Part shown: positions 3,436 through 53,303 of the stretch, piece after piece | Position numbering within the stretch: position 1 is the first letter of the stretch | Layout of the letters: the number at the start of each line of letters is the position of its first letter | Assembly (NCBI GenBank): GCA_028279245.1 | Contig: JANQOE010000004.1 | Location: forward strand, 31,724-95,723 | Reading direction: 5' to 3' | From: Alphaproteobacteria bacterium | Lineage (GTDB): Bacteria; Pseudomonadota; Alphaproteobacteria; UBA6615 | Length of the DNA stretch: 64,000 nucleotides | The notes under the pieces: model-generated | Told to the model about the DNA's origin: nothing | The model's input: only the letters and a program-made list of their open reading frames with translations | The model's database searches: none | Translations under genes and position numbers: made by a program

Positions 3436-4041
3436 ATGTTGGTACTCTCGTCGCCCTCGGGGGCTGGGAAGACATCCATATCGCGCGCGTTGCTCGACGC
3501 TGAAGACAATCTCAACCTGTCGATTTCGGTCACCACGCGCCCGAAACGCCCTGGCGAAACTGAGGGCCGCGACTACTACTTCGTTGATCCGACCGAGTTC
3601 AACCTGATGGTGAACCGGCAAGAGTTACTCGAATACGCGAAAGTCTTCGGTCACTACTACGGGACGCCCCGTTCAGCGGTCGAGGATGCGTTGTCTGCCG
3701 GACGCGATGTCCTGTTCGACATTGACTGGCAGGGAACGCAGCAGCTCGCCGAAAAAGCACGCGACGACCTGGTCAGCGTGTTCATTCTGCCGCCATCGAC
3801 GGCTGAATTAGAACGGCGGCTGCATACGCGGGCCCAGGACAGCGAGGAAGTGATCGGTCAACGCATGGCCAGGGCTGCCGACGAAATCACCCACTGGTCC
3901 GAGTATCAGTTCGTCGTCATCAATCAAGACTTTGAGGATAGCGTTGCCCGGGTGCGGGCAATTCTGAAATCCGAGCGTTTGCGGCGGACCCGACAGGTTG
4001 GGCTTGCCAACTTCGTCAAACGGTTGCGGGAGCTGCAGTAG
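3436..4041 (+). CDS. gmk: Guanylate kinase
   Basis: P-loop SSPSGAGKTS; TTRPKRPGE-x-DYYFV; conserved yicC-gmk neighbourhood; start at internal Met (track ORF 3352 would overlap yicC). Confidence 0.9.
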   Translation: MLVLSSPSGAGKTSISRALLDAEDNLNLSISVTTRPKRPGETEGRDYYFVDPTEFNLMVNRQELLEYAKVFGHYYGTPRSAVEDALSAGRDVLFDIDWQGTQQLAEKARDDLVSVFILPPSTAELERRLHTRAQDSEEVIGQRMARAADEITHWSEYQFVVINQDFEDSVARVRAILKSERLRRTRQVGLANFVKRLRELQ

Positions 4042-4867
4042 CGACGGCTTCAGCCAGCCGGCAGAAGTCTGCGACGGACAGGTTCTCGGCGCGCTGGGTC
4101 GCGTCGATACCGGCGCGTTTCGTGATCTGCTCCACGTCGCCAAGTTGACGAAGGCTGCTGCGCAGCATTTTTCGGCGCTGGCCAAATGCAGCGGCGGTCA
4201 CGCGCTCCAGCATTGGCCTCGATGCTGGATATCTTGGTTTCGACAGAGTGACCAGTCGAACGACCGATGAGGTGACCTTCGGTGGCGGCGTGAACGCGCG
4301 GGCTGAGATATCGAACAGATGGCTGGCGTCGCAGAGCCATTGGGTCAGGACCGAGAGCCGCCCATAGGCCTTTTCGTGCGGGTTGGCAGTAAGCCGTTGC
4401 GCGACCTCGGTTTGGAACATGAGAGTCATTTTCTCGACGTCGCCTGGCTGTTGCAGCCAATTCAGCAGCAACTGGGTCGCGATGTTGTAGGGCAAGTTGG
4501 CAACGATCTGCCGCGGCGGCGGGCCAAGATCAGCAAGGTCTTGGTCAAGGGCATCGGCTTCGATCACCTTCAGCCTGTCTGGATACGCGGTCATCAGGTC
4601 GGCCAGCGCGCCAATACAACGTTTGTCTCGCTCGACCGCCACGACCTGGGCCGCGTCGGTTTCCAGTAGGGCGCGGGTCAGGCCACCGGGGCCGGGGCCG
4701 ATTTCGATAACGGTGCGGCCAGACAGATCGCCTGGCGTTCGCGCAATCCGCCGCGTGAGGTTGAGATCGAGCAGGAAGTGTTGACCCAGTCCGCGCCGTG
4801 CGCTCAGGCCATGTCGGGAAATGACCTCGCGGAGCGGCGGCAGATCCGTCGGACTACCGTGGGTCAC
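4016..4867 (-). CDS. rsmA: 16S rRNA (adenine1518/1519-N6)-dimethyltransferase RsmA/KsgA
   Basis: GLGQHFLLD ... VIEIGPGPGGLT ... NLPYNI; likely GTG start at 4867 (VTHGSPTDLPPLRE); the upstream extension in the track overlaps pdxA. Confidence 0.85.
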   Translation of the reverse strand: MTHGSPTDLPPLREVISRHGLSARRGLGQHFLLDLNLTRRIARTPGDLSGRTVIEIGPGPGGLTRALLETDAAQVVAVERDKRCIGALADLMTAYPDRLKVIEADALDQDLADLGPPPRQIVANLPYNIATQLLLNWLQQPGDVEKMTLMFQTEVAQRLTANPHEKAYGRLSVLTQWLCDASHLFDISARAFTPPPKVTSSVVRLVTLSKPRYPASRPMLERVTAAAFGQRRKMLRSSLRQLGDVEQITKRAGIDATQRAENLSVADFCRLAEAVATAAPATV

Positions 4868-5873
4868 GGCGGGTCTGCTCGACCATGCGGGCGGCGAGGT
4901 TGAGTGCCGCCAAGAGACTTGCCGGATTTGCCTTGCCTTTTCCGGCGATGTCCTCGGCGGTGCCATGATCGGGCGAGGTTCGAACAATCGGCAGACCGAG
5001 GGTCACATTGACACCCTCGTCGAAATTGACGGTCTTGAGCGGGATCAGTGCCTGGTCGTGGTACATGCAGATCACGGCGTCATAGCGCTTTCTCGCTGCC
5101 GCATGGAACAACGAGTCGGCGGGGTAGGGGCCGCTTGCATCGATCCCAGCCGCTTGCAGCCTTTTCACGGCGGGTGCGATAACATCAAACTCCTCGCGGC
5201 CGATGGCGCCGGCCTCACCGGCGTGCGGATTGAGACCAGCCACCGCCAAGCGTGGCGCCCGTATCCCGAATTGTCTTTGTAGCCCCTCTGCGGTGGTCGT
5301 CCCTGCACGAACAATCGTGTCGGCGGAAACAGCCTTGGCGACTTCCGCCAATGGTACATGGACTGTGATGGGCACAACGCGCAGCTCATCGACGGAGAGC
5401 ATCATGACCGGGTGGTCGACGCGGCACAGTTGGGCGATGTACTCCGTGTGACCCGGCGCCGTGAAGCCCGTGTCGTAGAGTACCTTCTTGTTGATCGGAT
5501 TGGTCACCATCGCACGGGTTTGACCATCCCGTGTCAGCGCGAGAGCCGTGTCGATCGAAGCGACGACTGCTGGACCGTTGTCTGGGGAAGGGCGTCCCAA
5601 GTTGACCGGCGCGCCAAGCGGCTGGTGGATGACCGGCAGCGCTTGTGGCCAAGTCCGCTCGGCCCCCATGGGATCATCAACCTTCCTCACACTGACGTCG
5701 AGTTGCAGGTGTTCGGCTTGGCGCCCTACCTCCTCGCTGTCACCAACCAAGACGAACATTGGCGTTCGTTGGTCGCGAGCCTGCCAGGCCTTGATCGCGA
5801 TCTCGATACCAATGCCGGCTGGGTCGCCCATCGTGAGAGCGATCGGGGCACCGGTACGTGCCGACGGCGTCAA
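4854..5873 (-). CDS. pdxA: 4-hydroxythreonine-4-phosphate dehydrogenase
   Basis: PIALTMGDPAGIGIEI, HTEY, NPHAGE motifs; sits in the lptD-surA-pdxA-ksgA operon. Confidence 0.9.
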   Translation of the reverse strand: MTPSARTGAPIALTMGDPAGIGIEIAIKAWQARDQRTPMFVLVGDSEEVGRQAEHLQLDVSVRKVDDPMGAERTWPQALPVIHQPLGAPVNLGRPSPDNGPAVVASIDTALALTRDGQTRAMVTNPINKKVLYDTGFTAPGHTEYIAQLCRVDHPVMMLSVDELRVVPITVHVPLAEVAKAVSADTIVRAGTTTAEGLQRQFGIRAPRLAVAGLNPHAGEAGAIGREEFDVIAPAVKRLQAAGIDASGPYPADSLFHAAARKRYDAVICMYHDQALIPLKTVNFDEGVNVTLGLPIVRTSPDHGTAEDIAGKGKANPASLLAALNLAARMVEQTRRDPR

Positions 5874-5876
5874 GGA

Positions 5877-7130
5877 TCAGATCCGGATGTCGACGATGGC
5901 GGCGCGGCGAAGGTCTCGGAGGTATCGGCGCGAGAGCATATCCACACGTTCCCGCACCAACGTTTCGCGGATCGTCTCGCGCGGCGGCAGGCCAGTGCTG
6001 TCGTCGCGGTCGCAGATCATCACCAGCTGGACCCCGGCAGGCGTCACCAATGGCTCGCTGGTCTGGCCGACCGGCAGGTTTTGCGCCAGATCGCGTAACC
6101 GCTCGTTCAGGTCGCCGATCCGGATGCGCGTTGGCTCGTCAGGCTGTGGAACACCAAGTTCGGCGGCCGTTTCGGCGAAGGCCGGGCACCCATCTATAGA
6201 TGCCAGGGTTGGTTCGGTGGCCTCAAGCTTGGCGCTCGCTTCCGACTCCAGCGGTACCAGGATTTGCCGGAGGGCAACTTCGATCTCGTTGCGGTCGCTG
6301 CCGGCGCTGATGCGATCTTCGATGACTGCAAGGATCAGAAAGCCATCTTGGGTTTCGATCGGGCCGGCGAGCTGCCCCGGACTGAGTTTCGTCAGGATTT
6401 CATCTAATTCCGGGTCGAGTTGTCCTGGCTGGATCCACCCAATGTCGCCGCCGCTGGCCGCGCTGGCGCTTTGGCTGAACTGATTAGCTACGCGGCCGAA
6501 GGAAGCGCCTTCGCGGATCTGCCGCACGAGATTCTCAGCCAGCTCACGGATCTCGGCGGTCTCGGCAGGGTCGTCGATGGGGAGGCGGATTTCCGCTACG
6601 CGCGTCTCCCGCTGTCCGCGGGTCGATGAGATACGGGTGAGGACGGTGTCGATCTCCTCGTCACCGATCTCCACCGTGGGTTGGACGCGTCTGGCGAGAA
6701 ACTTTTCCCAGATGAGCTGAGCCCGCACCTGCTGCTCCACCGCACCCCGGGAGAGCCCGGACTCAGCAATGAACCGGTCGAATTGGCCTGGCGGGATGTT
6801 GTTGTTTTGCTCCAACTGGGCAATGGCCTGTTCCATATCCCGATCGGTGACCCGCACATTTTGCCGCTCGGCTTCCTGGACGCGCAGGCGCTCGTCGATC
6901 AGGCGGCGCAGAATGTTGGGCGCGATCCGGCGTTGCTGTTCCTGAGTTGGTTCCACGTTGGATGACGACAGCACCAGTTGGATGCGCTGTGAGAGGTCGT
7001 AGATCGAGATGACCTCGTCGTTCACCACCGCTGCGATGCGCTGCACCTCTTGCGCGGATGCAACCCAAGGGATTACCCCCATAAGGGCTGTCAGGACTAC
7101 TAGTCGGCCGAGAGAACGGAAACTCATCAT
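5877..7130 (-). CDS. surA: Periplasmic chaperone / PPIase SurA
   Basis: Signal peptide MMSFRSLGRLVVLTALMG..ASA, SurA N-domain (AAVVNDEVISIYDL) and parvulin region; sits between lptD and pdxA. Confidence 0.85.
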   Translation of the reverse strand: MMSFRSLGRLVVLTALMGVIPWVASAQEVQRIAAVVNDEVISIYDLSQRIQLVLSSSNVEPTQEQQRRIAPNILRRLIDERLRVQEAERQNVRVTDRDMEQAIAQLEQNNNIPPGQFDRFIAESGLSRGAVEQQVRAQLIWEKFLARRVQPTVEIGDEEIDTVLTRISSTRGQRETRVAEIRLPIDDPAETAEIRELAENLVRQIREGASFGRVANQFSQSASAASGGDIGWIQPGQLDPELDEILTKLSPGQLAGPIETQDGFLILAVIEDRISAGSDRNEIEVALRQILVPLESEASAKLEATEPTLASIDGCPAFAETAAELGVPQPDEPTRIRIGDLNERLRDLAQNLPVGQTSEPLVTPAGVQLVMICDRDDSTGLPPRETIRETLVRERVDMLSRRYLRDLRRAAIVDIRI

Positions 7131-7199
7131 GGTGTGAGCGTCACGGTCTATCCTATTGTTTCGACGTAACAATAGCGCGAGCGCGCCGCCTCGAACAGT

Positions 7200-9344
7200 C
7201 TAGAAAATGCGGTTCTGGAGTGTTCCAAGGTTCTTGAAGTCCACACGGACATAGAACTCGTCTGCCGGGGTTATCTCCCGGTCTTCAAAAGCACGGCGGC
7301 GGTATTCCGCCGTAAAGATGAGGCAGTCGCAGGTGTAAGTGACCGATGCTCCCCAGGTCCGCGTATCGTCCTGCTTCAGATCACGCAAAATATCGAAGGA
7401 GGCCGACCATTGGTCGGTAATGCGGGATCGAAGCCGCAGGGATATCTCCTCGCGCTTGTCCGCAAACTCGTCGTCCTGGTCAAAGAAGAGGTAATTGGTC
7501 GTCAGGTTCAAGGCTGGCGGGCCGACCCGAAGCAGGAGTTCATTGCGCCGGAACGCGAAGCTGTCTTTGTCCAGCCTGGTCTTATAGACGAGGCTCCCAA
7601 GGCGGTTTGGCGTAATCTGGAGACGTCCAACATAGTCGGAGAAGTGATCGTTTAGGCCGCTGTTGTCCGGAAACGTACTATCGTTGCGGAACTGATACGA
7701 TTGGCCGAAGGCTGCGGACGCCGACGCGCCTCCCACATGGAACAATCCAGTCCGCAAGCCATAGGCGACCCGCTGACCACCTTCAACACGGTCCCGGCCA
7801 ACGAACCGGCTTCGCTTGAACAGGTTCGTCTCGTCAAATTCGAATATCCGGCTGTCCTCGTTCGGTATCTCTTCCGGATTGCCTCCATTGGGTGCGGCGA
7901 CCAGCTGCAGGACCGGCTCAACAAGCTGGCTGAACCGGGCGCCACTGCGCACCAACGGATAGCGCCAGCCGAGTGAGACTTGCGGAAAAATCCGGCCCGT
8001 TACGCCTGAGAATTCGTCGCCATCCGTTTGGGCGACCGAAGATACGCTGTAGATGTCCGCTTGGAGGCTCGCCTCAAACTCAAATAACCCGCCGATCGGA
8101 TCGATGAACGGCAGTCGCCATGCGCCCGTTCCTGACAGACGGCGGCTGTCCGTTCCACTGGGCCGGGTCAGCACGAAGTTCTCGCTACTGAACAGCCATT
8201 GGCTGCCGTTGGCGGCAGGCTCACTGGATATGAAGTAATCGAGTTTTGGCGCGACGATTGGGATCTGATCCTGGTCGTCCGCTGCCCGCAATCCTTGAAA
8301 GTACAGGCCTTCGGCCCGCGCATAGTCGCGGCCGCGAAAGCCTTCGGCGAAGGCCCGGCTGGTGAGGCTATTGCTCGAGTCGATGTTGTACTGCCGTAGG
8401 AAGGTCTCGTCGGAGGTCAGTTCGATGTCCGCTCCGGCACGCCACACGTCGCTGAGGTCAAACCGTACTGCTGTGTCGGTGAAGGTGCGCGGTTGATCAT
8501 CGCCACCGAAATCGTCGACTGTCGCTCCGACTTTGGCGCGCAGCGATCCCTTGTCGAAAGCCTGTCGGTACTCGGCGATGCCGAGGACGGTCTGCTTGGT
8601 CGTGAATGTGGGATCGAACGTAATGTCTTTATCGTCGGTGACGGCCCAGAAATACGGGGTGTTGAGAGTCGTGCCGAGATCGCTGGATACCCCCACCGAT
8701 GGCGTAAGGAACCCGGAGCGCCGCTTCACTGTCGGATCGGGATGGCGGAAATAGGGTGTGTAAAAGACTGGGATGCCGGCGATCTCCATCCGCGCGTTTC
8801 GGTATTCGACGTCGCGGGTTTCCTGGTTATGGATGACTCGGGTCGCCTTGATGCGCCAGAGCGGCACCTGTTGCGGCCCAACGCATTCGCGGCAAGGCGA
8901 ATAGACAGCGCGGTTTAGCTGCGTCTCGACCCCACCAAATCGCTGAGCGTTTACACCGGCAAGTCGTGAGTCATCTTGCAGCAACATGCGGAACTCGCGG
9001 ATGAATCCTTCCTTCAGGTCATCTGTTAGTTCCACGAACTCGGCGAATATGACCTCGCCGGATGGCTCCATCAGAACGACACCGCCCGAAGCCGAGACGA
9101 CATTTGTACGCTGGTTGAAGGTTAGCGAGTCCGCTAGCAGAACCCGGTCGCCTTGGGTGATCTCAACGTTGCCGCTTGCTGTCGCAAGGTCCAGGTCTTC
9201 ATTGAAGGTGAGTTCGTCGGCCGTCAGCAGAACTGGTTCGTCGGTTTGCGGCAGCGTTACATCTTGGGCGTTAGCATGGCCGGCAAGCAATGCAAACCCG
9301 ACTGCGCAAACTTGGAAGACCTTCCTGGTCCACGTCGCTGCCAT
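7200..9344 (-). CDS. lptD: LPS-assembly outer-membrane protein LptD (OstA/Imp)
   Basis: Signal peptide, OstA N-domain (LTADELTFNEDLDLATASGNVEITQGDRVL), 714 aa beta-barrel C-terminus; upstream of surA. Confidence 0.9.
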   Translation of the reverse strand: MAATWTRKVFQVCAVGFALLAGHANAQDVTLPQTDEPVLLTADELTFNEDLDLATASGNVEITQGDRVLLADSLTFNQRTNVVSASGGVVLMEPSGEVIFAEFVELTDDLKEGFIREFRMLLQDDSRLAGVNAQRFGGVETQLNRAVYSPCRECVGPQQVPLWRIKATRVIHNQETRDVEYRNARMEIAGIPVFYTPYFRHPDPTVKRRSGFLTPSVGVSSDLGTTLNTPYFWAVTDDKDITFDPTFTTKQTVLGIAEYRQAFDKGSLRAKVGATVDDFGGDDQPRTFTDTAVRFDLSDVWRAGADIELTSDETFLRQYNIDSSNSLTSRAFAEGFRGRDYARAEGLYFQGLRAADDQDQIPIVAPKLDYFISSEPAANGSQWLFSSENFVLTRPSGTDSRRLSGTGAWRLPFIDPIGGLFEFEASLQADIYSVSSVAQTDGDEFSGVTGRIFPQVSLGWRYPLVRSGARFSQLVEPVLQLVAAPNGGNPEEIPNEDSRIFEFDETNLFKRSRFVGRDRVEGGQRVAYGLRTGLFHVGGASASAAFGQSYQFRNDSTFPDNSGLNDHFSDYVGRLQITPNRLGSLVYKTRLDKDSFAFRRNELLLRVGPPALNLTTNYLFFDQDDEFADKREEISLRLRSRITDQWSASFDILRDLKQDDTRTWGASVTYTCDCLIFTAEYRRRAFEDREITPADEFYVRVDFKNLGTLQNRIF

Positions 9345-43912: not shown

Positions 43913-45208
43913 TCACATCTCGGGTGCCGTGTAGATCGTACGGCCGTCGACGACCGTGCGGAGAACCTGCCCTTGAACCAAACGTCCGTCAAACGGCGAG
44001 TTCTTCGATTTGGACCGTAGCGCGTCGGCATCGATCCGCCACGGGCGCCCCGGGTCAAACAAGACCAGGTCGGCGGGTGCGCCCGGCGCGAGGCGGCCGA
44101 CCGGCAGTCCCATGCGTTCCGCCGGAACGACAGTCACCTTGCGTAAGGCGTCCGGCAGGGACAAGTGACCGTTGTGGGCCAGCTCCAGAGTGAGGGGCAG
44201 CAAGGTTTCCATCCCGATGCCGCCAGGTGCCGCTTGGGCGAAAGGCAGGCGCTTCGAATCTTGATCCTGGGGTGCGTGGTCGGAGGCGATCAAGTCGATC
44301 GTGCCGTCCTTCAACCCTTCGACAATCGCCTGTCGGTCGTCCTCGCTGCGCAGCGGCGGGGTCAGCTTGGCGAAGGTGCGGTAGTCGGCGATCGACAGTT
44401 CGTTCAAGGCGAAGTTGGGTGGTGTTGCGTCGCAGGTGACGTCGAGACCGCGTGACTTTGCGGCCCGGATGCGCTCCACCGATGCCGCCGTGGAGATTGC
44501 CGCCGCATGGTACCGACCGCCGGTCATCTCGACCAAGGTGAGGTCGCGGTCGAGCATGATGGTCTCGGCCTCGCGCGGGATCCCCGGCAGCCCCAGCCGG
44601 GTCGACAGCTCGCCAGCGTTCATAACGCCATCGTCAACCAGGCTTGGCTCTTCGGGATGCTGCATCAGCAACGCGCCAAAGGTTGTGGCATAGCTCAGGG
44701 CGCGGGCCACTACCGACGCCTTACTGACCCCTACCGGACCGTCGCTGAAGGCGATGGCGCCGGCTTCTCGCAGCAGGCCGAACTCGGTCATTTCGTTGCC
44801 CGCCAGATCCTTTGTTATGGCGGCGTGGGTGAATACTTTAACAGTTTTGACTTCACGGGCGCGGCGGGCGACAAACTCGATCCCAGCGACGTCATCGATC
44901 ACCGGTTCGGTGTTGGGCAAGGCGATCATGGTGGTCACGCCACCGGCGGCGGCGGCTCGGCTCGCGCTGTTGATGTCTTCCTGGTGCTCGGCGCCGGGTT
45001 CCCGCAATTGAACACGGATATCGACCAGGCCGGGTGACAGGACGGCGCCGCCGCAATCGACGACATCGGCGCCCTCCGGCGTGGCGCCGTTGGCGATGCC
45101 GGGGCCGAGATCAGCGATGATCCCGTTTTCAGCCAAGAGGCCGCCGGGGGCGTCCAGGCCTGTGGCGGGGTCGAGCAAGCGGGCGTTGCGGTAGACTGTC
45201 CGCTTCAT
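43913..45208 (-). CDS. pyrC: Dihydroorotase (multifunctional-complex type)
   Basis: Amidohydrolase metal ligands ([10 protein letters not shown] ... ASDHAPQD); pyrC-pyrB adjacency. Confidence 0.85.
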
Positions 45209-46182
45209 AAAGCGCCGGCCTCCCGGACGCCGTGCGCCAGCAGGTCGAGGCACGCCATGCGCACGGCCACGCCCATCTCGACTTGTTCGTGGATAAGGCT
45301 TCTGTCAATATCGTCAGCGACTTGTGAATCGATCTCAACACCTCGATTCATCGGCCCCGGGTGCATGATCAGCGCGTCCGGCTTGGCGAATTGCAGCTTT
45401 TCATAGTCCAGGCCGAAGAAGCGGAAGTATTCGCGGATAGATGGGACGAAGGTGCCCTGCATGCGCTCCCGCTGGAGCCGCAGCATCATGACGATGTCGC
45501 AATCCGCCAGACCCCGGCGCATGTCGTGGAACACCTCGACCCCGAGCCGTTCCAACTCCGGCGGCAGCAGTGTTGGCGGCGCGACCACACGGACTCGGGC
45601 GCCCATGGTCTGCAGCAGGTAGATATTGGAGCGGGCCACGCGGCTGTGGGCGATGTCGCCGCACAGCGCGACCTGCAAGTCGCGTAGATGGCCGCGGCGC
45701 CGGCGGATCGTCAGTGCGTCGAGCAGAGCCTGGGTCGGGTGTTCATGACTCCCGTCGCCGGCGTTGATGACGGCGCAATTAACCTTTTCCGACAACAGCT
45801 TAACGGCGCCGGCATCGGGATGGCGGACGGCCAGGACGTCGGCGTGCATCGCATTGAGGGTCATCGCGGTGTCGATCAGGGTCTCGCCCTTCTTGATCGA
45901 ACTACTGCCGACGGAGATGTTGATGACGTCGGCGCCGAGGCGCTTGCCAGCCAGCTCAAAACTCGTCCGGGTCCGGGTCGAATTCTCGAAGAACAGGTTG
46001 ATGCAGGTGCAGCCGCTAAGAGTGCTCAGCTTGCGCCCGCGGCCCCGGCTTTGCTCGGCATATTCTTCCGAAAGGTCCAGCAGCTGGGAGATATCATCGG
46101 GGGATAGTCCCTCGATGCCGAGCAAATGGCGGTGCGGATAGGGCGGCGGCGCGGATTCTGGGGAAATCGGCGAGATAGCCAT
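45205..46182 (-). CDS. pyrB: Aspartate carbamoyltransferase catalytic subunit
   Basis: STRTRTSFE carbamoyl-phosphate motif, HPTQ, HPGP. Confidence 0.9.
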
Positions 46183-46267
46183 CAAAACGGTCTTATACGG
46201 GCACCGGTGAGTCGCGGACAAGCCATCCAAGCTTGTTTTTTCGCACCTGCAGCATTAGCTATCTCCC

Positions 46268-46345
46268 ATGATCGCGTATCTGGCTTCGACCACCACGGCC
46301 ACAACGACGACCCGCTGCGGCGGGCCGGGGCTTGGCGTGTGCTGA
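46268..46345 (+). promoter_or_regulatory. Putative threonine-rich leader peptide ORF (MIAYLASTTTATTTTRCGGPGLGVC), candidate attenuator leader
   Basis: 25 codons, 7 Thr in codons 8-15 (acc acc acg gcc aca acg acg acc); lies between the pyrB promoter region and the thrS-like gene; weak Shine-Dalgarno. Confidence 0.45.
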
Positions 46346-46370
46346 TCGATAGCTGATACGCCGAAGCAAA

Positions 46371-46410
46371 CGGCCCCGCCGGCAAACGGACGGGGCCTTT
46401 TGATTCTTGG
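46371..46410 (+). terminator. Intrinsic terminator-like hairpin (GGCCCCGCC...GGACGGGGCC) plus U-tract, candidate attenuator terminator
   Basis: 9-bp GC stem with one bulge followed by TTTTGATTCTT, ~40 nt upstream of the thrS-like start; upstream GCGGCGGGCC (46317-46326) can pair with its left arm as an alternative structure. Confidence 0.55.
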
Positions 46411-46447
46411 GCTCCCGTCCTCCAACCCCCTTCGAGAGGACACACCA

Positions 46448-47719
46448 ATGGACCCGAACGACCACCGAATGATCGCCAAGCGCATGGACCTTTTCCATTT
46501 GCAGGAAGAGGGCCTGGGCATGGTGTTTTGGCACCCTGCTGGTTTCGCACTTTACGAGGTGATCGAGAGTTTCATCCGCAGGCAGATGCGCGCGGCCGGC
46601 TTTCAAGAGATCCGGACGCCGCAGTTGCTGGACCGGGGCCTATGGGAGGCCAGCGGCCACTGGGACAAGTTCGGCGAGAACATGTTTGCGCTGGACGATG
46701 GTGAGCGCGTGCTGGCGCTGAAACCCATGAGTTGCCCGGCGCATGTGCAGATCTTCAACCATCGCCCGCGGTCGTTTCGGGAACTGCCGATGCGGCTGTG
46801 TGAATTCGGTTCCTGCCTCCGCAATGAGCCGTCCGGCGCTTTACTGGGTCTGATGCGGACCCGGGCGTTTGTGCAGGACGATGCCCACATCTTTTGCCTG
46901 CCCGAGCAGATCGAGGCCGAGGTGCGGAACTTCTGCGCGATGCTTGCGGAGATCTATCGGGCCTTCGGTTTCAGCGATGTCGAGGTCCGGTTCGCCAATC
47001 GGCCAAAACAGCGGGCCGGTTCCGATGAGGCGTGGGACATGGCCGAGGCTCGCCTGGAACGGGCTGCCTTGGCCGCCGGGCTCGATTTCGAGACCAGTTC
47101 CGGTGAGGGCGCCTTCTATGGGCCGAAGCTCGAATTCCATCTGCGCGACAATCGCGGCCGGCGTTGGCAGTGCGGCACTGTGCAGCTCGACATGGTCCTG
47201 CCGGAACGGCTGGGGGCGGAGTATGTCGATGCTGCGGACCGGCGGCAGCGCCCGGTGATGTTGCACCATGCCGTGCTGGGCAGTGTCGAGCGTTTCATCG
47301 GCGTGCTGCTGGAACATCACGCCGGCAAACTGCCGCTTTGGCTGGCGCCGGTACAGGTCGTGGTCGCCTCGGTTGGTGGTCAGCAGGCGGACTATGTCTC
47401 CAGTGTCGTAGATCGGCTTAGTCGACTTGGCTATCGCGTGCGGGCCGATGTCAGGGATGAGCGGCTGTCGCGCAAGGTCGTTGATGCCCGGGGAATCGGC
47501 GCGCCGGTGTTTCTCACCGTGGGCAAGAATGAGATGCAGGCGGACACTGTGGCGCTGCGGGAAAGCGATGGTAGTCAGACAAGCCTCAGCGTTGAGGGGT
47601 TAGACGACCATCTGCGCCCCAACGCCTTCCGTGAATCTTCGGGGGTTGCGTCTAGACCGGTCGTCATGGGGCACGGTTGGCGGCCTGTTTCAGATAGTCG
47701 AGGTATCCCTGGAGTATGA
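46448..47719 (+). CDS. Truncated threonyl-tRNA synthetase paralog (catalytic plus anticodon-binding domains only)
   Basis: Collinear with E. coli ThrRS from about residue 242 (NDHRMIAKRMDLFHLQEE ~ RDHRKLGKQLDLYHMQEE) through motifs 1-3 and zinc ligands (KPMSCPAHVQIF, QDDAHIFC, VMLHHAVLGSVERF) to the anticodon-binding domain; no TGS or N2 editing domains. Confidence 0.85.
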   Translation: MDPNDHRMIAKRMDLFHLQEEGLGMVFWHPAGFALYEVIESFIRRQMRAAGFQEIRTPQLLDRGLWEASGHWDKFGENMFALDDGERVLALKPMSCPAHVQIFNHRPRSFRELPMRLCEFGSCLRNEPSGALLGLMRTRAFVQDDAHIFCLPEQIEAEVRNFCAMLAEIYRAFGFSDVEVRFANRPKQRAGSDEAWDMAEARLERAALAAGLDFETSSGEGAFYGPKLEFHLRDNRGRRWQCGTVQLDMVLPERLGAEYVDAADRRQRPVMLHHAVLGSVERFIGVLLEHHAGKLPLWLAPVQVVVASVGGQQADYVSSVVDRLSRLGYRVRADVRDERLSRKVVDARGIGAPVFLTVGKNEMQADTVALRESDGSQTSLSVEGLDDHLRPNAFRESSGVASRPVVMGHGWRPVSDSRGIPGV

Positions 47720-48149
47720 ATGCCGCGGCCATCTTGTCCGTCACCTCGCTGCGACGTTTGCGCGACAGGTCGGCGTCGGCGACCAGGAGCCGCTCGACGG
47801 CGGCGGTCGACAGGCGTTCATCCCAGAACGCTATTGGACAGTCGATGATGGATGCGAGGTTGCGCGCGAAGTCGCGGGTCGACTGGCAGCGCGGCCCTTC
47901 GCTCCCATCCATATTCAGCGGAAGGCCCAGTACCAGGCCGCCAACCTGGTGTTCTTCGATTTGACTGCTCAACCTTGCGGCGTCGGCGCGGAACTTTGCT
48001 CGTCTGATTGTGTCGAGGGGAGTCGCCACAGTCCGGCTCGCGTCACTCAGGGCGAGGCCGATCGTCTTGGACCCCAGGTCCAAGCCCAGCAGCCGATCCA
48101 TCGGTTTGAGCCAATGAAGCAGATCGAGAGGGGCCTCTGCTATGGTCAT
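47664..48149 (-). CDS. ruvX: Putative Holliday-junction resolvase RuvX (YqgF)
   Basis: LLGLDLGSKTIGLALSD ... RNase H-like fold; 3' end overlaps the thrS-like 3' end by 56 nt (start may be the internal Met at 48101). Confidence 0.8.
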   Translation of the reverse strand: MTIAEAPLDLLHWLKPMDRLLGLDLGSKTIGLALSDASRTVATPLDTIRRAKFRADAARLSSQIEEHQVGGLVLGLPLNMDGSEGPRCQSTRDFARNLASIIDCPIAFWDERLSTAAVERLLVADADLSRKRRSEVTDKMAAAFILQGYLDYLKQAANRAP

Positions 48150-48240: not shown

Positions 48241-48945
48241 ATGCGCATTCTTCTGGTGGATGACGACGCTGATTTCGCGGAAATGGTTCGCGATTATCTA
48301 AGCGACAAAGGGCAGCACGTCGCGATTGCCGGTGATGGGCAGGAGATGCGCGACTGCCTGGAGCGGGATCCCTTCGACATCGTTTTGTTGGATCTGGTGC
48401 TGCCGCAAGAGGATGGTCTCGTCCTTACCCAGTATCTTCGAGAGAATACCGACGCTGGTGTGATTATCTTGAGCGGCGCCGGGACTCTTGTTGACCGGGT
48501 GGTATCGCTCGAACTCGGCGCCGACGACTATCTGCAGAAGCCCTTCGAACTGCGCGAATTGCTGGCCCGGGTGAACAGCCTGCATCGGCGGGTCAGAGCC
48601 GGCCAGCGGTCGTTGCGGCAAGCCAAGGTTGCAGCTTTTGCCGGATGGCGCCTCGATCTGCAGAACCGGAAACTGTTCAGGCCGACCGGCGGCGAAGTCT
48701 CGCTCACATCGACAGAGTTTTCGCTGCTTCGCACGTTGGTGAGTCATCCGTTCGAGGAGCTCAGTCGGGAGGAACTCATGCGCGAGATCAAGGGACGTTC
48801 CGTCGAGGCATGGGGCCGGAACATCGATGTTCATGTCTTACGCCTGCGGCAGAAGATTGAAGCCAATCCGACCGAACCTGCCTTGCTTAAGACCGTGCAC
48901 GGCATTGGCTACACGTTCTGCGCCGATGTCGCGGAGGAAGGTTAG
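48241..48945 (+). CDS. OmpR-family winged-helix response regulator
   Basis: Receiver (ILLVDDD ... VLLDLVLP ... KPF) plus winged helix (LTSTEFSLLRTLV ... VHVLRLRQKIE ... TVHGIGY). Confidence 0.85.
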   Translation: MRILLVDDDADFAEMVRDYLSDKGQHVAIAGDGQEMRDCLERDPFDIVLLDLVLPQEDGLVLTQYLRENTDAGVIILSGAGTLVDRVVSLELGADDYLQKPFELRELLARVNSLHRRVRAGQRSLRQAKVAAFAGWRLDLQNRKLFRPTGGEVSLTSTEFSLLRTLVSHPFEELSREELMREIKGRSVEAWGRNIDVHVLRLRQKIEANPTEPALLKTVHGIGYTFCADVAEEG

Positions 48946-51900
48946 ACAGATAGAAGCGCCAGCGTGTCGGCTAGCTGCTCCTTGCTGAACGGTTTGGATA
49001 GGAACGCGGTCGAAGGGTCTCCGGCACCGATATCCCGGCGAATAGCCTGACCGGAAACCAACAAGATTGGTAGGGTCGGGATCTGGTTTCGGGCGGTCCG
49101 GGCGAGTTCAATACCTTCCATGCCGTTGCCGAAGACGACATCTGTTACCAGAACCGCAGCATAAGGGTGCTCCGACAGAGCGGATAATGCAGTCGACGCA
49201 TCGGTTGCTTGGCGGGTCTCATAGCCCAGCTCTTGCAGCCGCCGTGCCGTCAACGCCAACATGTCTGGCTGATCATCGACGACAATAGCAATGTTGTGGC
49301 GGGGTTCTCGCTTGTGCGGTGCGGTAGCAGGGGGCCGCTTCTGTTTGCCGGGAGGGCCACATGGGAGAACGAGTTGAACCGTGGTCCCCTTACCTTCCTC
49401 CGACTCGATTGTGAGTCCGCCGCCGGATTGACGCATGAAGCCATATACGACGCTTAGACCCAAGCCGGAGCCGTTCCGCTTTGTCGAAAAGAAAGGCTCC
49501 ATGATGCGCGGGCGGATCTCCGCGGGAATGCCGAGTCCGCTGTCCCTGAGGCTCAACACGACATACCGGCCAGGGTTCAGATCCGATCCAGGCTGGACCG
49601 TTTCGATTTCCAGATTCTGGGCTCTGATATCCAGCCGGCCGCCGTCGGGCATCGCGGCGCCGGCGTTCAAAGCGATGTTCAGCAAGGCATCTTCCAGCCG
49701 TCCCGCGTCGACCCAGACGGGCCAGAGCCCGAGCGGCGAATTGAGGGTCACCCGTGTTTTCGAACCGAGCGCGCTACGGATGACGTCTATGATCTCGCCA
49801 AGGATCTGGTTCGGCCTGATGGCGTCGGCCCGCAAACTCTGCCGGCGACCGACGGCGAGCAAACGTTCGGTCAGGGTGGCGCCGCGGCGCACGGCCCGTA
49901 AACCGGCCTGCACACGGCGCGTCAATTCGGGCGTCTCCCTGGTCTGCTCGCCGAGAATCTCCAGGTTGCCTCGGATGACGGCCAGGAGATTGTTGAAGTC
50001 GTGCGCGACCCCACCGGCCAGTTGGCCAATCATTTCCATGCGTTGGGCATGGGCGATCCGGTTGTCAGTGTGCCGGCGCTCCGTGATGTCCAAATTGAAG
50101 CCGGCCATGCCGACCAAGTCGCGGTCGGTATCGAACACTGGGAACTTGGTCACCTCGAGGATACGATCCTCGCCGTTTGGGCATTTCGAGATTACCTCCC
50201 GGGTAACCGGGTGCCGCGTCGCGCGGACCTCGGTTTCGATCCGTCTGTATTCTCTGGCGATCTTGTCCGGCAATAGATCCTGGATGCGCTTGCCGTAGAT
50301 ATCCTCGATCGGACGATCGAGGTTCTTCGCCAGCAGTGGGCTGGCAATCACGTAGCGGCCGTCCAAATCGTTCATGGAGATCGCGAACGGGAGGTTCTCG
50401 ATGAGTGCGCGAAGGCGCTGTTCGGACTGTTGTCGTGCTTCATCGGCCCGACGTTGTTCCGTCACGTCAACAGCGATCCCCGCTAAGCCAATCAGTGCGC
50501 CACCTGTGTCGAAGATCGGGAATTTTATGACGTCATGGAAACGTGTCTTGCCCGCCCGTTCATAGAGGATTACCTCGCGGGCTGGCCGCTCGTTCTCAAG
50601 GACCGCCTGATCGATGGCTCCTGTTCTGGCGGCAACCTCTGGTGCAAGCATATCAGCCGCGGTCTTGCCGGCGTAATCTCCACTATCCGGTTCAAACAAC
50701 GCCTGCCCCGCCGCGTTTACGAATAGGTACCGGCCGACCGTATCCTTCATGAATAGGGGGTGGGGCAAACTATCAGCGATCACCTGGAAGCGATGTTCGC
50801 TGTCCAGGCGGGCTTTCTCAGCTTCTTCCTGTTCAGTGATGTCTATGGCAACGCTAGCAAGGCCGATCATTTGGCCGGCATGATCGAAAACCGGGAACTT
50901 TGTGACGTCCAGCACCCGGTTTGAACCATCGTCCAGTGTGAACCACGAGCGATAGCGAAGCGATCGCTGCTTGTTCATGACATGACGGTCGGCGGCTCTT
51001 GATCGACGCGCCGCGCCTGCAGGGAACATGTCAGACGCCGTCTTGCCGATGACACCCTCTGGCGGGTCAGTTACGCGAAATGTCTTGCAGAATGCAGAAT
51101 TGACGAGAGTGTATCGACCCGCGGGGTCCTTCATTGCCAGCGAATAGGGCAAATTATCTATGAGGATCCGAAACCGCTTCTCAGTGTCTGCCAACTTCTG
51201 CTTGAAGTGATAACGTTCGCTGACGTCAACGTTGATGCCTCCAACGCCTATGATCTTACCGTCCCGTCCGAACACCGGAAACTTGGTTATTTCCAGATGA
51301 TGGGGTTCATCATCAGGGGGTGTTGAAACAAAGCTTCGATGGACTGGTTTGCCCGTCCCGACGACCTCGCGGTCGATACTCTGCGCCTCTTCGGTCTCTT
51401 TGTCTGAGAAGAATACACTAGTGCTGCGGCCAACGAGTTCCGGGCTTGACCGGCCTACAAAGCCAGCGAAAGCTCTGTTGACGAGGGTATATCTACCCTC
51501 CCTATCCTTCAGATAGGCGCCATGCGGCAAGCTCTCGATTAGTGTTTCAAGTTGTTGGTGTTCTTTCTCCAGGGCTCTGTTCGCGTCGTGAAGCCGATCC
51601 AACATACTGTTGAAAGTCCGGGCTACTCGGCCGACCTCGTCTCGGCCTAGGGACGGAGCCCGGACAGTGAAGTCACCGGCGGCGACAGCGTTTGCCGTCG
51701 ATTCGAGTGTTGCGAGCCGTCGTGTTATCAATGTGCTAAGCAAGAGCAGCGTGAGTACGCTGACTGCTGCGGTCGCCATGGCGAGAAGGAGGCCCTTCGC
51801 CACGACGGCTTGGCTGGCTGACTCCAGGAGGGCCGCAGACAAGACCACGGAAGCCGTACCGATCTGCTCGCCGCTGAGTGTGATCGGGGTTGTTAGGTTG

Positions 51901-52241
51901 ATTGTCTGTCGCTCGTCGGTGGCCGCACCGACTGGAACAAGTGGCTCGGTTCTGGACAGCAGCGTGTTGCGGCTATCTCGAACGTCGATGGAGAGAACGC
52001 TGTCGATTTTCGCAATGTCCCTCAGTTCCTCGCTCAGGGTGGCTAAATCACGTTCGAACACCGACGGAGCCAGAGCCGCGCCGAGTAGGGGCGATAACTC
52101 CGCAAGCCTTGTATCAGACGCAATGGTCAGCAGGTTGCGGGTGAGGCGGGCATTGTTCGCGAGATGAAGCGTGAAGGTGAGTGTCAGAATTAGAACCATC
52201 GCGCCGACAAGCTTTGCGCGCAGGGAATGGACTAGGTTCAT
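48942..52241 (-). CDS. Hybrid sensor histidine kinase / response regulator with multiple PAS domains
   Basis: N-terminal TM plus HAMP, about 5 PAS repeats, H-box LAGGVAHDFNNLLAVIRGNLEIL, HATPase_c, C-terminal receiver (IAIVVDD ... LVTDVVF); 1099 aa. Confidence 0.85.
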   Translation of the reverse strand: MNLVHSLRAKLVGAMVLILTLTFTLHLANNARLTRNLLTIASDTRLAELSPLLGAALAPSVFERDLATLSEELRDIAKIDSVLSIDVRDSRNTLLSRTEPLVPVGAATDERQTINLTTPITLSGEQIGTASVVLSAALLESASQAVVAKGLLLAMATAAVSVLTLLLLSTLITRRLATLESTANAVAAGDFTVRAPSLGRDEVGRVARTFNSMLDRLHDANRALEKEHQQLETLIESLPHGAYLKDREGRYTLVNRAFAGFVGRSSPELVGRSTSVFFSDKETEEAQSIDREVVGTGKPVHRSFVSTPPDDEPHHLEITKFPVFGRDGKIIGVGGINVDVSERYHFKQKLADTEKRFRILIDNLPYSLAMKDPAGRYTLVNSAFCKTFRVTDPPEGVIGKTASDMFPAGAARRSRAADRHVMNKQRSLRYRSWFTLDDGSNRVLDVTKFPVFDHAGQMIGLASVAIDITEQEEAEKARLDSEHRFQVIADSLPHPLFMKDTVGRYLFVNAAGQALFEPDSGDYAGKTAADMLAPEVAARTGAIDQAVLENERPAREVILYERAGKTRFHDVIKFPIFDTGGALIGLAGIAVDVTEQRRADEARQQSEQRLRALIENLPFAISMNDLDGRYVIASPLLAKNLDRPIEDIYGKRIQDLLPDKIAREYRRIETEVRATRHPVTREVISKCPNGEDRILEVTKFPVFDTDRDLVGMAGFNLDITERRHTDNRIAHAQRMEMIGQLAGGVAHDFNNLLAVIRGNLEILGEQTRETPELTRRVQAGLRAVRRGATLTERLLAVGRRQSLRADAIRPNQILGEIIDVIRSALGSKTRVTLNSPLGLWPVWVDAGRLEDALLNIALNAGAAMPDGGRLDIRAQNLEIETVQPGSDLNPGRYVVLSLRDSGLGIPAEIRPRIMEPFFSTKRNGSGLGLSVVYGFMRQSGGGLTIESEEGKGTTVQLVLPCGPPGKQKRPPATAPHKREPRHNIAIVVDDQPDMLALTARRLQELGYETRQATDASTALSALSEHPYAAVLVTDVVFGNGMEGIELARTARNQIPTLPILLVSGQAIRRDIGAGDPSTAFLSKPFSKEQLADTLALLSV

Positions 52242-52351
52242 TGGGGCCTCGTCTAACGGGCTCCGATGGCTATCGGAGCAGGCGAGCTACACTCAGGCGT
52301 CGTGGGCCTATGATCTCTGGAGTATGGGAGAATGCTTGGTCGAAGCAAACC

Positions 52352-53170
52352 TCAAGGTTCGCGTTGCCCCGTCTGGCTCAATCGTTCGACAAGCATTGAT
52401 CCAAACGGTATGAACCCCTTTAGATCCGCTTCGGAGATCGGTTCAAACTGGAGTCCGAACCGCTGCCCTTCTTCAGACTCATGGAAGCGGAGGAACGCCG
52501 CTGTAAGCCGTGTCTGGAGGTCTTCCGCCGCGGCCCCCGGCGCCACGGATATGACGCCAAAGCTGTCCCCCAGTTTGGCGATGCCGCGTAGGCTGTCTCC
52601 GGAGTTAGACGGCAACTGATCCGAGAAGGCCTGTATTGAGACTGTGGTATCGGCCTGCTTTCCGGCGACGAGCAGCAAAGCCGTGCTGTGCGACGTCGTG
52701 TGGTGGAAGCTCAAGTCACGGTCGGCGAAACGCTTCGCCGCCAACAGTGAGACAAAACAAAGCGGATCCGGCAATGCCATGACGCCGCCGCCGAGGTCTT
52801 CCAAGGTCTTCAAGTCGCCGTCTTTGTGGGCAAACAGCTCAATGGCGAATTTGGATGACTGAAGGATGGGGCTGTAGCCAATGTGATCCGCGGCAAGGGC
52901 CGCGACATGTGGCGGGGTCACGGCGATGTCGTAGGTCCGGTTGCCCAGCCGGCTCTTGAATGAACTGAAATCCGGCGCGGTCTCCAGGATGACTTCGGTA
53001 TCCAGGGTCCGGCGAATATAGGCCTGCAGCTCGCCATAGCGCTCTTGCAGGGCGCCCGGACTGGTGAACGGCATGACACCGAGGCGCAGTGCGCCATCGG
53101 CCGCATGGACCGGTCCGGACGCCGCGACGAGGCATCCGAGAAGGACACTGACCCTAAGCGATAGATTCAT
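52352..53170 (-). CDS. PhnD/SsuA-like periplasmic substrate-binding protein (phosphonate-binding fold), putative kinase partner
   Basis: Signal peptide MNLSLRVSVLLGCLVAASGPVHA, LRLGVMPF ... type-2 periplasmic-binding-protein fold; immediately upstream of the hybrid kinase on the same strand. Confidence 0.55.
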   Translation of the reverse strand: MNLSLRVSVLLGCLVAASGPVHAADGALRLGVMPFTSPGALQERYGELQAYIRRTLDTEVILETAPDFSSFKSRLGNRTYDIAVTPPHVAALAADHIGYSPILQSSKFAIELFAHKDGDLKTLEDLGGGVMALPDPLCFVSLLAAKRFADRDLSFHHTTSHSTALLLVAGKQADTTVSIQAFSDQLPSNSGDSLRGIAKLGDSFGVISVAPGAAAEDLQTRLTAAFLRFHESEEGQRFGLQFEPISEADLKGFIPFGSMLVERLSQTGQREP

Positions 53171-53303
53171 TGATCGACCCGATTCTACTAATACGTTCAT
53201 TCTGTGCCGGTTGAAACCACATTCTGAGTGCACCGTGCCAACATTGCTGGGACGGTAGGCAGGTGCTAGCTTCCGCGCTTTCTCGCAGGGCAGAAGACCG
53301 GGA

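Follow-up and report, generated by a model that had tools for sequence, protein, structure and literature searches.

A stretch of 64,000 nt from contig JANQOE010000004.1 of an alphaproteobacterial assembly (GCA_028279245.1; from here: the window) carries, between pyrB and ruvX, a gene for a threonyl-tRNA synthetase (ThrRS) that lacks the N-terminal half of the enzyme. The first-pass annotation, made from the sequence alone, had placed the gene between these two neighbours, and Pfam confirmed both. The gene is preceded by a short open reading frame (ORF) rich in threonine codons and by an intrinsic terminator. The positions of all elements are given in Table 1.

Table 1. Features of the truncated thrS locus (positions in the window) and the related element upstream of asd in Azospirillum halopraeferens
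Feature	Position	Strand	Basis or remarks
pyrB	45205..46185 (likely)	-	Pfam
Leader-peptide ORF, MIAYLASTTTATTTTRCGGPGLGVC	46268..46345	+	25 codons plus TGA
Full attenuator element	46283..46408	+	covariance model R1, 104 bits, E 4.8e-24
Regulatory run, 7 Thr codons in 8 (ACC ACC ACG GCC ACA ACG ACG ACC)	46289..46312	+	presumed ribosome-stalling site
1:2 hairpin CCCGC-UGCG-GCGGG, predicted anti-antiterminator	46311..46324	+	RNAalifold, alignment A6 columns 29-33 with 38-42
Region 2, CGGCGGGCC	46318..46326	+	complementary to terminator 5′ arm; predicted 2:3 antiterminator
Intrinsic terminator 3:4, GGCCCCGCCG-GCAAA-CGGACGGGGCC then UUUU	46372..46401	+	-22.5 kcal/mol; 46 nt before ATG
Region 5, GGGCUCCCGUCCUCC (tentative role)	46409..46423	+	complementary to terminator arm 4; CCUCC to Shine-Dalgarno
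Shine-Dalgarno GAGAGGA of thrS-like gene	46434..46440	+	7 nt upstream of ATG; read from sequence
Truncated thrS ORF	46448..47719	+	ATG 46448, stop 47717-47719; 423 aa
Conserved ThrRS core, 395 aa: class II catalytic and HGTP anticodon-binding domains	46448..47632	+	Pfam, TIGR00418, structures, alignment
C-terminal read-through tail, 28 codons plus stop	47633..47719	+	antisense to ruvX 3′ end
ruvX	47664..48149	-	Pfam
asd attenuator with leader MKSMFATTTTTTKTTRCGGPSAGVVR	L005 6563-6705; asd 6763-7782 (A. halopraeferens AUCF01000006.1)		R1, 105 bits

A naturally truncated ThrRS and its family

The ORF encodes an intact ThrRS that consists of the catalytic and the anticodon-binding domain alone and is naturally without the proofreading half. 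In the protein, Pfam recognised tRNA-synt_2b (PF00587) at residues 83-291 (E 7.6e-46) and HGTP_anticodon (PF03129) at residues 303-384 (E 2.8e-13), and detected neither TGS (PF02824) nor tRNA_SAD (PF07973). The NCBIfam model TIGR00418 (thrS) was matched with 455 bits against a cut-off of 384, at model positions 171-561 of 565 only, i.e. over the C-terminal two thirds, in agreement with the earlier expectation of a match restricted to the C-terminal part of ThrRS. The best matches in PDB were bacterial ThrRS, among them 6vu9 at residues 250-632 (E 2e-135) and E. coli ThrRS (1qf6) at residues 242-616, and the delta-N versions engineered from the E. coli enzyme (1evk, 4hwo and others) were matched from end to end; identity to the solved ThrRS cores amounts to ~57%. 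Met1 of the window protein aligns with residue ~239 of E. coli ThrRS, near the catalytic-domain start at about residue 242 that the first-pass annotation had named. Its description of a collinear class II core with zinc ligands and anticodon-binding domain agrees with Pfam, the PDB matches and the alignment, and the absence of the TGS and editing domains is borne out by Pfam, by the start of the TIGR00418 match at position 171 and by tblastn.

The zinc ligands C334, H385 and H511 (E. coli numbering, also below) are retained, as are R363, Q381, D383, Y462, G463, K465, Q484, L489 and R520, and the ligands of zinc, ATP and threonine are invariant in the alignment of the whole family. An AlphaFold model of the protein had a mean predicted local distance difference test (pLDDT) score of 83 and a predicted template modelling score (pTM) of 0.82. 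Most residues exceeded 85 and the anticodon-binding domain was modelled at >90; the parts of low confidence are the motif-2 loop and residues 399-423. Judged by these residues, the truncated enzyme should activate threonine and charge tRNA-Thr. Since the N2 domain is missing, hydrolysis of Ser-tRNA-Thr in cis should be impossible for it; in a cyanobacterial ThrRS, removal of N1-N2 abolishes editing (PMC4787780).

When the N-terminal halves of three ThrRS (from E. coli, Kiloniellales and Pelagibius) were searched against the 64-kb window by tblastn, nothing better than E = 0.49 was found, and of a full-length ThrRS query only residues 240-615 aligned. Because there is no N-terminal remnant across the window, the ORF cannot be the 3′ end of a thrS broken by a frameshift or an assembly error. 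The suspicion of a pseudogene or an assembly artefact, raised together with the initial description, is thereby removed: motifs 2 and 3 and the zinc ligands are intact and the window holds no upstream 5′ part.

Residues 396-423 have no counterpart in the relatives, which end in ..EAFR in the alignment. At this point the related locus L090 reads CGT TGA and the window reads CGT GAA, hence the ancestral family stop was lost in the window copy. The resulting tail overlaps the 3′ end of ruvX over 56 nt and is predicted to be disordered (pLDDT <30 in the AlphaFold model). The odd C-terminus remarked on in the first-pass annotation is thus real and explained by the loss of a stop codon; it looks like a lineage-specific accident and not like a domain.

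A search of 5.8 billion proteins returned >100 clusters at 90% identity with proteins of 391-405 aa that are 62-77% identical to the window protein and have the same two Pfam domains in every cluster. Named members come from Pelagibius, Kiloniellales, Minwuiales and A. halopraeferens, and more were found in an Inquilinus sp. and in a metagenome-assembled genome (MAG) labelled Polyangiaceae. Each of the former is annotated plainly as "threonine--tRNA ligase"; as these truncated genes bear the name of the housekeeping enzyme, the annotation problem is a systematic one. Among the Burkholderiaceae, Burkholderia sp. M701 has the 402-aa member WP_176704807.1 on its conjugative plasmid pM7012 (582 kb), and further members reside on a Caballeronia megaplasmid and on the 3.5-Mb secondary replicon of Burkholderia arboris. 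The copy on a conjugative plasmid suggests how the gene could pass horizontally between Alpha- and Betaproteobacteria.

The family is under purifying selection. The mean column identity among its members is 67% with all catalytic residues invariant, and pairwise ratios of nonsynonymous to synonymous substitution rates (dN/dS) range from 0.09 to 0.15, with dS up to 1.9; for the window copy, dN/dS is 0.09-0.13 against its relatives at loci L002 and L090. In a neighbour-joining tree of the shared region, calculated without support values, 15 truncated proteins form one clade, which lies outside the alphaproteobacterial housekeeping ThrRS, including the full-length enzymes of Pelagibius and Kiloniellales. 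When the alignment was inspected for family-specific active-site substitutions, only three strict signature positions emerged (E. coli A260G, T526L and H585A), none of them at a known functional site.

Two further scans have to be read with regard to the peptides that they relied on. A scan of contigs with the whole-family alignment picked universal ThrRS peptides, and 2 of 80 loci were truncated among the matches listed; the remaining 78 served as full-length controls. A scan of metagenomes with a sub-alignment (HHAVLGS..LLEHH) was not family-specific either, as 50 of 80 matches were full length, and it yielded three new members. One metagenomic protein (P0042, 625 aa, JGI metagenome) contains the start of the catalytic domain twice, once before N2, and is probably an assembly chimera.

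Truncation is not confined to the family, since ~25 of the best 150 representatives of clusters at 50% identity are ThrRS of ~400 aa that begin at the catalytic domain. Those outside the family include P0375, P0470 and ~20 other representatives, some of the unnamed ones possibly being fragments; named examples are from Candidatus Providencia siddallii (410 aa) and from a Methanobacteriota MAG (396 aa). As such ~400-aa ThrRS occur also outside the family, the N-terminal half was lost more than once. The first-pass annotation knew of no characterised bacterial example, and our literature searches agree: in mostly open journals we found no description of a naturally N-truncated bacterial ThrRS family or of a leader-peptide attenuator of thrS. 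The family is widespread in Alphaproteobacteria and Burkholderiaceae, and an earlier description may nevertheless exist.

The threonine-codon leader and its predicted alternative RNA helices

A threonine-rich leader ORF and a terminator stand before each of the 18 truncated thrS loci examined, which comprise 15 alphaproteobacterial or metagenomic loci and three from Burkholderiaceae. The leaders have 24-41 codons with an in-frame start and stop and contain 5-9 threonine codons each, mostly in one dense run. Their usual peptide pattern is ..TTTTTR.GGP..; the leaders of Pelagibius, the Polyangiaceae MAG and B. arboris read MRNIAVTTATTTTTTRNGGPRGILSR, MLVALALTTTTTTRPGGTEVVVTRG and MNARFVTTTTTTTTTANGGLGGGCTS, respectively. 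Across the loci the runs are made up of 52 ACC, 43 ACG, 5 ACT and 2 ACA codons, and threonine is preserved between loci by synonymous changes, for instance between the window and L002. Within 330 nt upstream of 68 full-length thrS genes nothing leader-like was found, and none of the 68 had more than 4 Thr per 8-codon window. The leader ORF has no obvious Shine-Dalgarno sequence, and a conserved CTTGTTTTTTCGCACCTGCAGCATTA lies just upstream of it in the window (46231-46267) and in L002 (7780-7825). The leader may be translated from leaderless or Shine-Dalgarno-less mRNA, and pyrB and the leader may have a divergent promoter region in common.

The leader RNA of the window folds more stably than shuffled sequences (z = -4.6). 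The RNAalifold consensus of 15 leaders comprises a 1:2 hairpin of 5 bp and the terminator. The hairpin links the last Thr/Arg codons to the GCGGG that follows; its 3′ half belongs to region 2, and it is pairable in 13-15 of the 15 sequences. The terminators of all loci have a GC stem of 10-12 bp and a U tract (-17 to -25 kcal/mol); one terminator pair shows a compensatory AU to GC change.

Alternative helices were shown in silico. Region 2 can form a 9-bp helix with region 3 (GGCCCCGCCG) that is pairable in 97% of cells, compared to 24-60% when the strands are slid; 13-15 of the 15 sequences allow both this helix and the 1:2 hairpin. Ribosome stalling was simulated by masking the Thr-codon region and folding the nascent transcript up to region 3. 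In this state all 15 of 15 sequences showed region 2 paired with region 3; without the mask, 10 of the 15 leaders preferred 1:2.

The covariance model R1, built from the 15 leaders, has a single match in the 64-kb window, namely the element upstream of the truncated gene. On copies that had not been used for training it scored 78-90 bits before the truncated genes of three Burkholderiaceae (Burkholderia, Caballeronia). One of these loci is L175 on pM7012 (3989-5197; NC_022995.1; plasmid type MOBF/MPF_F), where the family member and the attenuator (78 bits) occur together. No R1 match was found before full-length thrS, including that of Pelagibius at L089.

Another untrained match, of 105 bits, lies before asd, the gene for aspartate-semialdehyde dehydrogenase, in A. 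halopraeferens. There, asd is directly followed by the truncated thrS, which has a separate attenuator copy of its own. Since the same element precedes asd, it would be a threonine attenuator that also serves a threonine-pathway gene, which suggests a so far unrecognised threonine attenuator regulon outside the enterics. The element is absent from Rfam: between 45900 and 48400 there was no match at E<=1, Thr_leader (RF00506) included. When plasmids were searched with the leader by blastn, nothing was retrieved except the leader itself and unrelated terminators, of which one follows the gene of a resistance-nodulation-division pump. A weak R1 match in L048 was rejected as a false positive, the site being a tRNA followed by a terminator.

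Downstream of the terminator follows a conserved CCGUCC(UCC), region 5, that can pair with arm 4 and, in the sub-clade of the window, with the Shine-Dalgarno sequence. Of 16 post-terminator leaders, 12 have a 4:5 hairpin in their minimum-energy fold. The 4:5 helix is pairable in 87% of cells against 32-58% when slid and includes one compensatory pair, with no excess over shuffles. Region 5 might tentatively be considered a second, translational layer of control that would silence leaky read-through transcripts.

Paralogy and genomic context

The relation to the housekeeping enzyme can be seen in a 5.50-Mb Pelagibius chromosome record (ena:ERZ25084454:ctg6074), which encodes both a truncated ThrRS (P0050, 405 aa) near 2.28 Mb and a full-length ThrRS (P0226, 650 aa) near 4.79 Mb, the latter in the canonical order thrS-infC-rpmI-rplT-pheST. 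Because both forms are on one chromosome, the truncated form is a paralog in that genome. For the Burkholderia member, the status of a second copy is implied by its location on a plasmid. With the full-length ThrRS of a Kiloniellales MAG as query, ThrRS of 635-650 aa were retrieved from Pelagibius and Kiloniellaceae.

The position next to pyrB is common only to the two closest relatives of the window copy. L002 (77% identical) keeps the full synteny of pyrB, the truncated gene, ruvX, a response regulator, a PAS kinase and gatCAB, and in L090 (76% identical) pyrB lies directly upstream of the truncated thrS. As two diverged relatives share the site and dS is saturated, the insertion beside pyrB is old and has been maintained. 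A relative with an 83% identical PyrB has a pyrB-pyrC′-plsY-dprA-topA block, with neither a truncated thrS nor ruvX there. The first-pass annotation had spoken of a single-gene insertion; an insertion between pyrB and ruvX it is, but the inserted unit is the leader together with the gene. Elsewhere the context differs: in the Pelagibius group the truncated gene follows lipA and an SRPBCC gene, and in A. halopraeferens it lies between asd and prfC. In ~15 contexts examined we found no recurring partner gene, carrier protein, free-standing editing domain or biosynthetic cluster, and a free-standing editing-domain gene was found neither in the window nor in the neighbourhoods of 12 family members. 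The unit behaves as a self-contained accessory cassette, long kept in the lineage of the window.

With regard to the neighbours, the pyrB ORF at 45205-46230 (minus strand) opens at a TTG and would encode 341 aa. Since relatives have 320-325 aa, translation probably begins at the ATG at 46185. The homologs of this PyrB come from MAGs labelled Alphaproteobacteria, Rhodospirillales or Kiloniellales. Many related PyrB homologs (P0256, P0267, P0269-P0276 and others) are ~395-403 aa long and carry an N-terminal XRE-type helix-turn-helix domain (PF01381, PF13560), which the PyrB of the window is without. Between ruvX and gatC (48241-53233) the window encodes a response regulator (48241-48945), a multi-PAS histidine kinase of 1099 aa (48942-52241) and a phosphonate-type periplasmic binding protein (52352-53233). 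The same interval of L002 contains the same regulator and PAS kinase genes, with the kinase split into two ORFs. Neither tRNA genes nor Rfam families at the gathering score were detected in the whole window.

Proposed role and comparison with known systems

We propose, with a probability of about 0.65, that the cassette provides an auxiliary ThrRS on demand, an enzyme without cis-editing whose synthesis is induced by leader-peptide attenuation when Thr-tRNA-Thr is scarce. With ample Thr-tRNA-Thr, the ribosome would pass the 25-codon leader without a pause, the 1:2 and 3:4 helices would form and transcription would end 46 nt before the gene. With scarce Thr-tRNA-Thr, it would stall on the seven Thr codons and free region 2, which would pair with region 3 in place of the terminator, and the synthetase gene would be transcribed. 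The product would be extra ThrRS capacity without cis-editing. Threonine limitation is one possible trigger, favoured by the link to asd; another would be inhibition or damage of the housekeeping ThrRS, e.g. by inhibitors, oxidation or metal stress. As the gene lies behind a Thr-codon leader switch, it is probably expressed only when charged tRNA-Thr is short. A backup ThrRS under starvation or stress was among the roles considered in the first-pass annotation, and the conserved Thr-codon attenuator, which had gone unnoticed there, lends it strong new support.

Several points weigh against this proposal. Five of the 15 leaders prefer the 2:3 pairing already when unmasked. The antiterminator and terminator helices are almost without covariation because the paired strands are nearly invariant; such near-invariance would be expected if three overlapping helices and a reading frame constrained the same strands. 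With covariation nearly absent, the RNA model draws on conservation, architecture and thermodynamic prediction. The window copy itself bears the 28-aa C-terminal extension. Finally, inducing an editing-less enzyme at a high Ser/Thr ratio seems risky for fidelity, for which the proposal does not account.

A further reading, which we consider rather unlikely, is that the loss of fidelity is programmed. Starvation would then switch on a synthetase unable to clear Ser-tRNA-Thr, and Thr codons would be filled with serine deliberately or tolerably, or charging capacity would be maximised at the cost of accuracy. If true, translation would continue in starvation, and free-living Alpha- and Betaproteobacteria would have a natural, regulated system of Thr-to-Ser mistranslation, in which the full-length ThrRS might edit in trans as soon as conditions improve.

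Doubtful in our view is an inhibitor-insensitive ThrRS that guards against borrelidin- or obafluorin-type compounds from neighbours or a host, the attenuator responding to a poisoned housekeeping enzyme. Second copies of aminoacyl-tRNA synthetases (aaRS) often confer resistance (PMC5388404; ObaO), one family member is on a conjugative Burkholderia plasmid, and exposure to an inhibitor fits induction by a drop in Thr-tRNA-Thr as well as starvation does. Against it, no biosynthetic cluster lies beside any of the ~15 contexts, and polyketide synthase, nonribosomal peptide synthetase or oba-like genes were found within 5-10 kb in none of them. The residues lining the active site are conserved; at the obafluorin/borrelidin resistance positions, changes of which make ObaO and E. 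coli ThrRS resistant (PMC11252418), all members have the wild-type residues G463 and L489, and the known substitutions G463S and L489M/W are absent from its alignment. Moreover, that asd has the same attenuator speaks for threonine supply and not for drug sensing. The self-resistance role suggested in the first-pass annotation hence finds no support in cluster content or in these two residues. An obafluorin preprint states that extra ThrRS copies in the genera concerned occur only with the oba cluster.

It is improbable that the truncated enzyme is the sole ThrRS of its organism, with a separate editing function in trans or no editing at all, for which Crenarchaeota, yeast mitochondria and reduced endosymbionts are examples. 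The sole synthetase encoded by pheST is under attenuator control, and Ca. Providencia siddallii and an archaeal MAG have N-truncated ThrRS, but the Pelagibius chromosome carries both forms and the genomes of Kiloniellales and Pelagibius generally encode a ThrRS of 635-650 aa. Furthermore, the family is patchy and its contexts are variable, the gene is absent beside pyrB in the relative with the 83% identical PyrB, and no free-standing tRNA_SAD gene is near any of the copies examined.

Still more improbable is a non-translational role, in which the activated threonine would go to a carrier protein, to a metabolite or to some component of the cell envelope, as with the SerRS-like amino acid:carrier-protein ligases of Alphaproteobacteria. 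Truncated aaRS paralogs have often acquired new roles (PMC9437257; PMC4787780). Unlike those ligases, though, the family keeps a conserved anticodon-binding domain, its neighbourhoods show no conserved gene for a carrier protein or another partner, and the Thr-codon attenuator ties expression to tRNA-Thr charging; these same three observations disfavour the tRNA-independent aminoacyl transfer that the first-pass annotation had listed. A decaying fragment from a partial duplication or transfer, to which the lost family stop and the run into ruvX might point, can practically be dismissed, as dN/dS is ~0.1 with saturated dS and all catalytic residues are invariant, by which a pseudogene is excluded, and as the Shine-Dalgarno sequence and the regulatory leader are conserved and there are hundreds of intact relatives.

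ThrRS editing is textbook translational quality control, and enzymes of the delta-N type have until now been laboratory products or oddities of organelles and archaea. In the present family, free-living bacteria carry this truncation as a conserved gene that is under selection and horizontally mobile, and its expression appears wired to the charging level of tRNA-Thr. The hosts include the culturable Pelagibius litoralis, A. halopraeferens, Inquilinus and B. arboris. The locus deserves solid interest, as the trade-off between charging capacity and proofreading can be studied here in a natural, regulated and culturable system. Is lower fidelity accepted to keep translating under amino-acid limitation, does the housekeeping synthetase edit in trans for the paralog, and how does a leader-peptide attenuator work outside the enterics?

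The closest likeness of the protein is the engineered E. coli delta-N ThrRS (residues 242-642; 1EVK/1EVL, 4HWO), which has the same domain boundaries within ~3 residues, is ~55% identical and collinear over the whole chain and has all active-site residues in common. The E. coli protein is a laboratory truncation without a regulatory leader, whereas the gene of the window is natural. Dock-Bregeon et al. reportedly found (Cell, 2000) that the E. coli delta-N enzyme aminoacylates normally and mischarges serine.

Concerning regulation, Bacillus subtilis thrZ is comparable as an auxiliary ThrRS gene beside the housekeeping thrS whose leader terminator senses tRNA-Thr charging. According to Putzer et al. 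in 1992, thrZ is said to be silent unless the charging of tRNA-Thr falls. ThrZ differs in being a full-length enzyme with an editing domain, in belonging to Firmicutes and in its sensor, a T-box riboswitch that binds uncharged tRNA and not a translated leader peptide; thrZ has been described as a second ThrRS gene with a leader terminator (PMC3997798). In the predicted architecture of the leader, the element resembles E. coli pheM-pheST and thrL-thrABC, which combine a short ORF containing a run of cognate codons with 1:2, 2:3 and 3:4 helices and an intrinsic terminator, and pheST is a precedent for an aaRS under leader-peptide attenuation. There is, however, no similarity to these two in sequence or covariance model, the lineages here are Alpha- and Betaproteobacteria, and in contrast to pheST the gene controlled is an accessory paralog and not the housekeeping enzyme.

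Other second or editing-less ThrRS share single traits with the family. Anabaena ThrRS T2 is a stress-induced second ThrRS that is editing defective. T2 is a zinc-starvation paralog, for which the other ThrRS restores fidelity by editing in trans (PMC4787780), but it keeps a degenerate N2 and is regulated by zinc instead of Thr codons. Yeast mitochondrial MST1 (3ugq) and crenarchaeal ThrRS-cat (3a31) are natural ThrRS without a cis-editing domain; they are far more distant (E 2.7e-69 and 6.6e-48 compared to 2e-135 for bacterial ThrRS) and are the sole synthetase of a compartment or partnered with a separate ThrRS-ed. The self-resistance ThrRS ObaO/BorO are again second ThrRS copies in a proteobacterium, yet ObaO, a full-length enzyme of 637 aa, is encoded within the obafluorin cluster and has the substitutions G463S and L489M (PMC11252418); the family shows none of these traits. 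The locus thus joins two known kinds of system, the auxiliary aaRS paralog and leader-peptide attenuation, in one conserved cassette.

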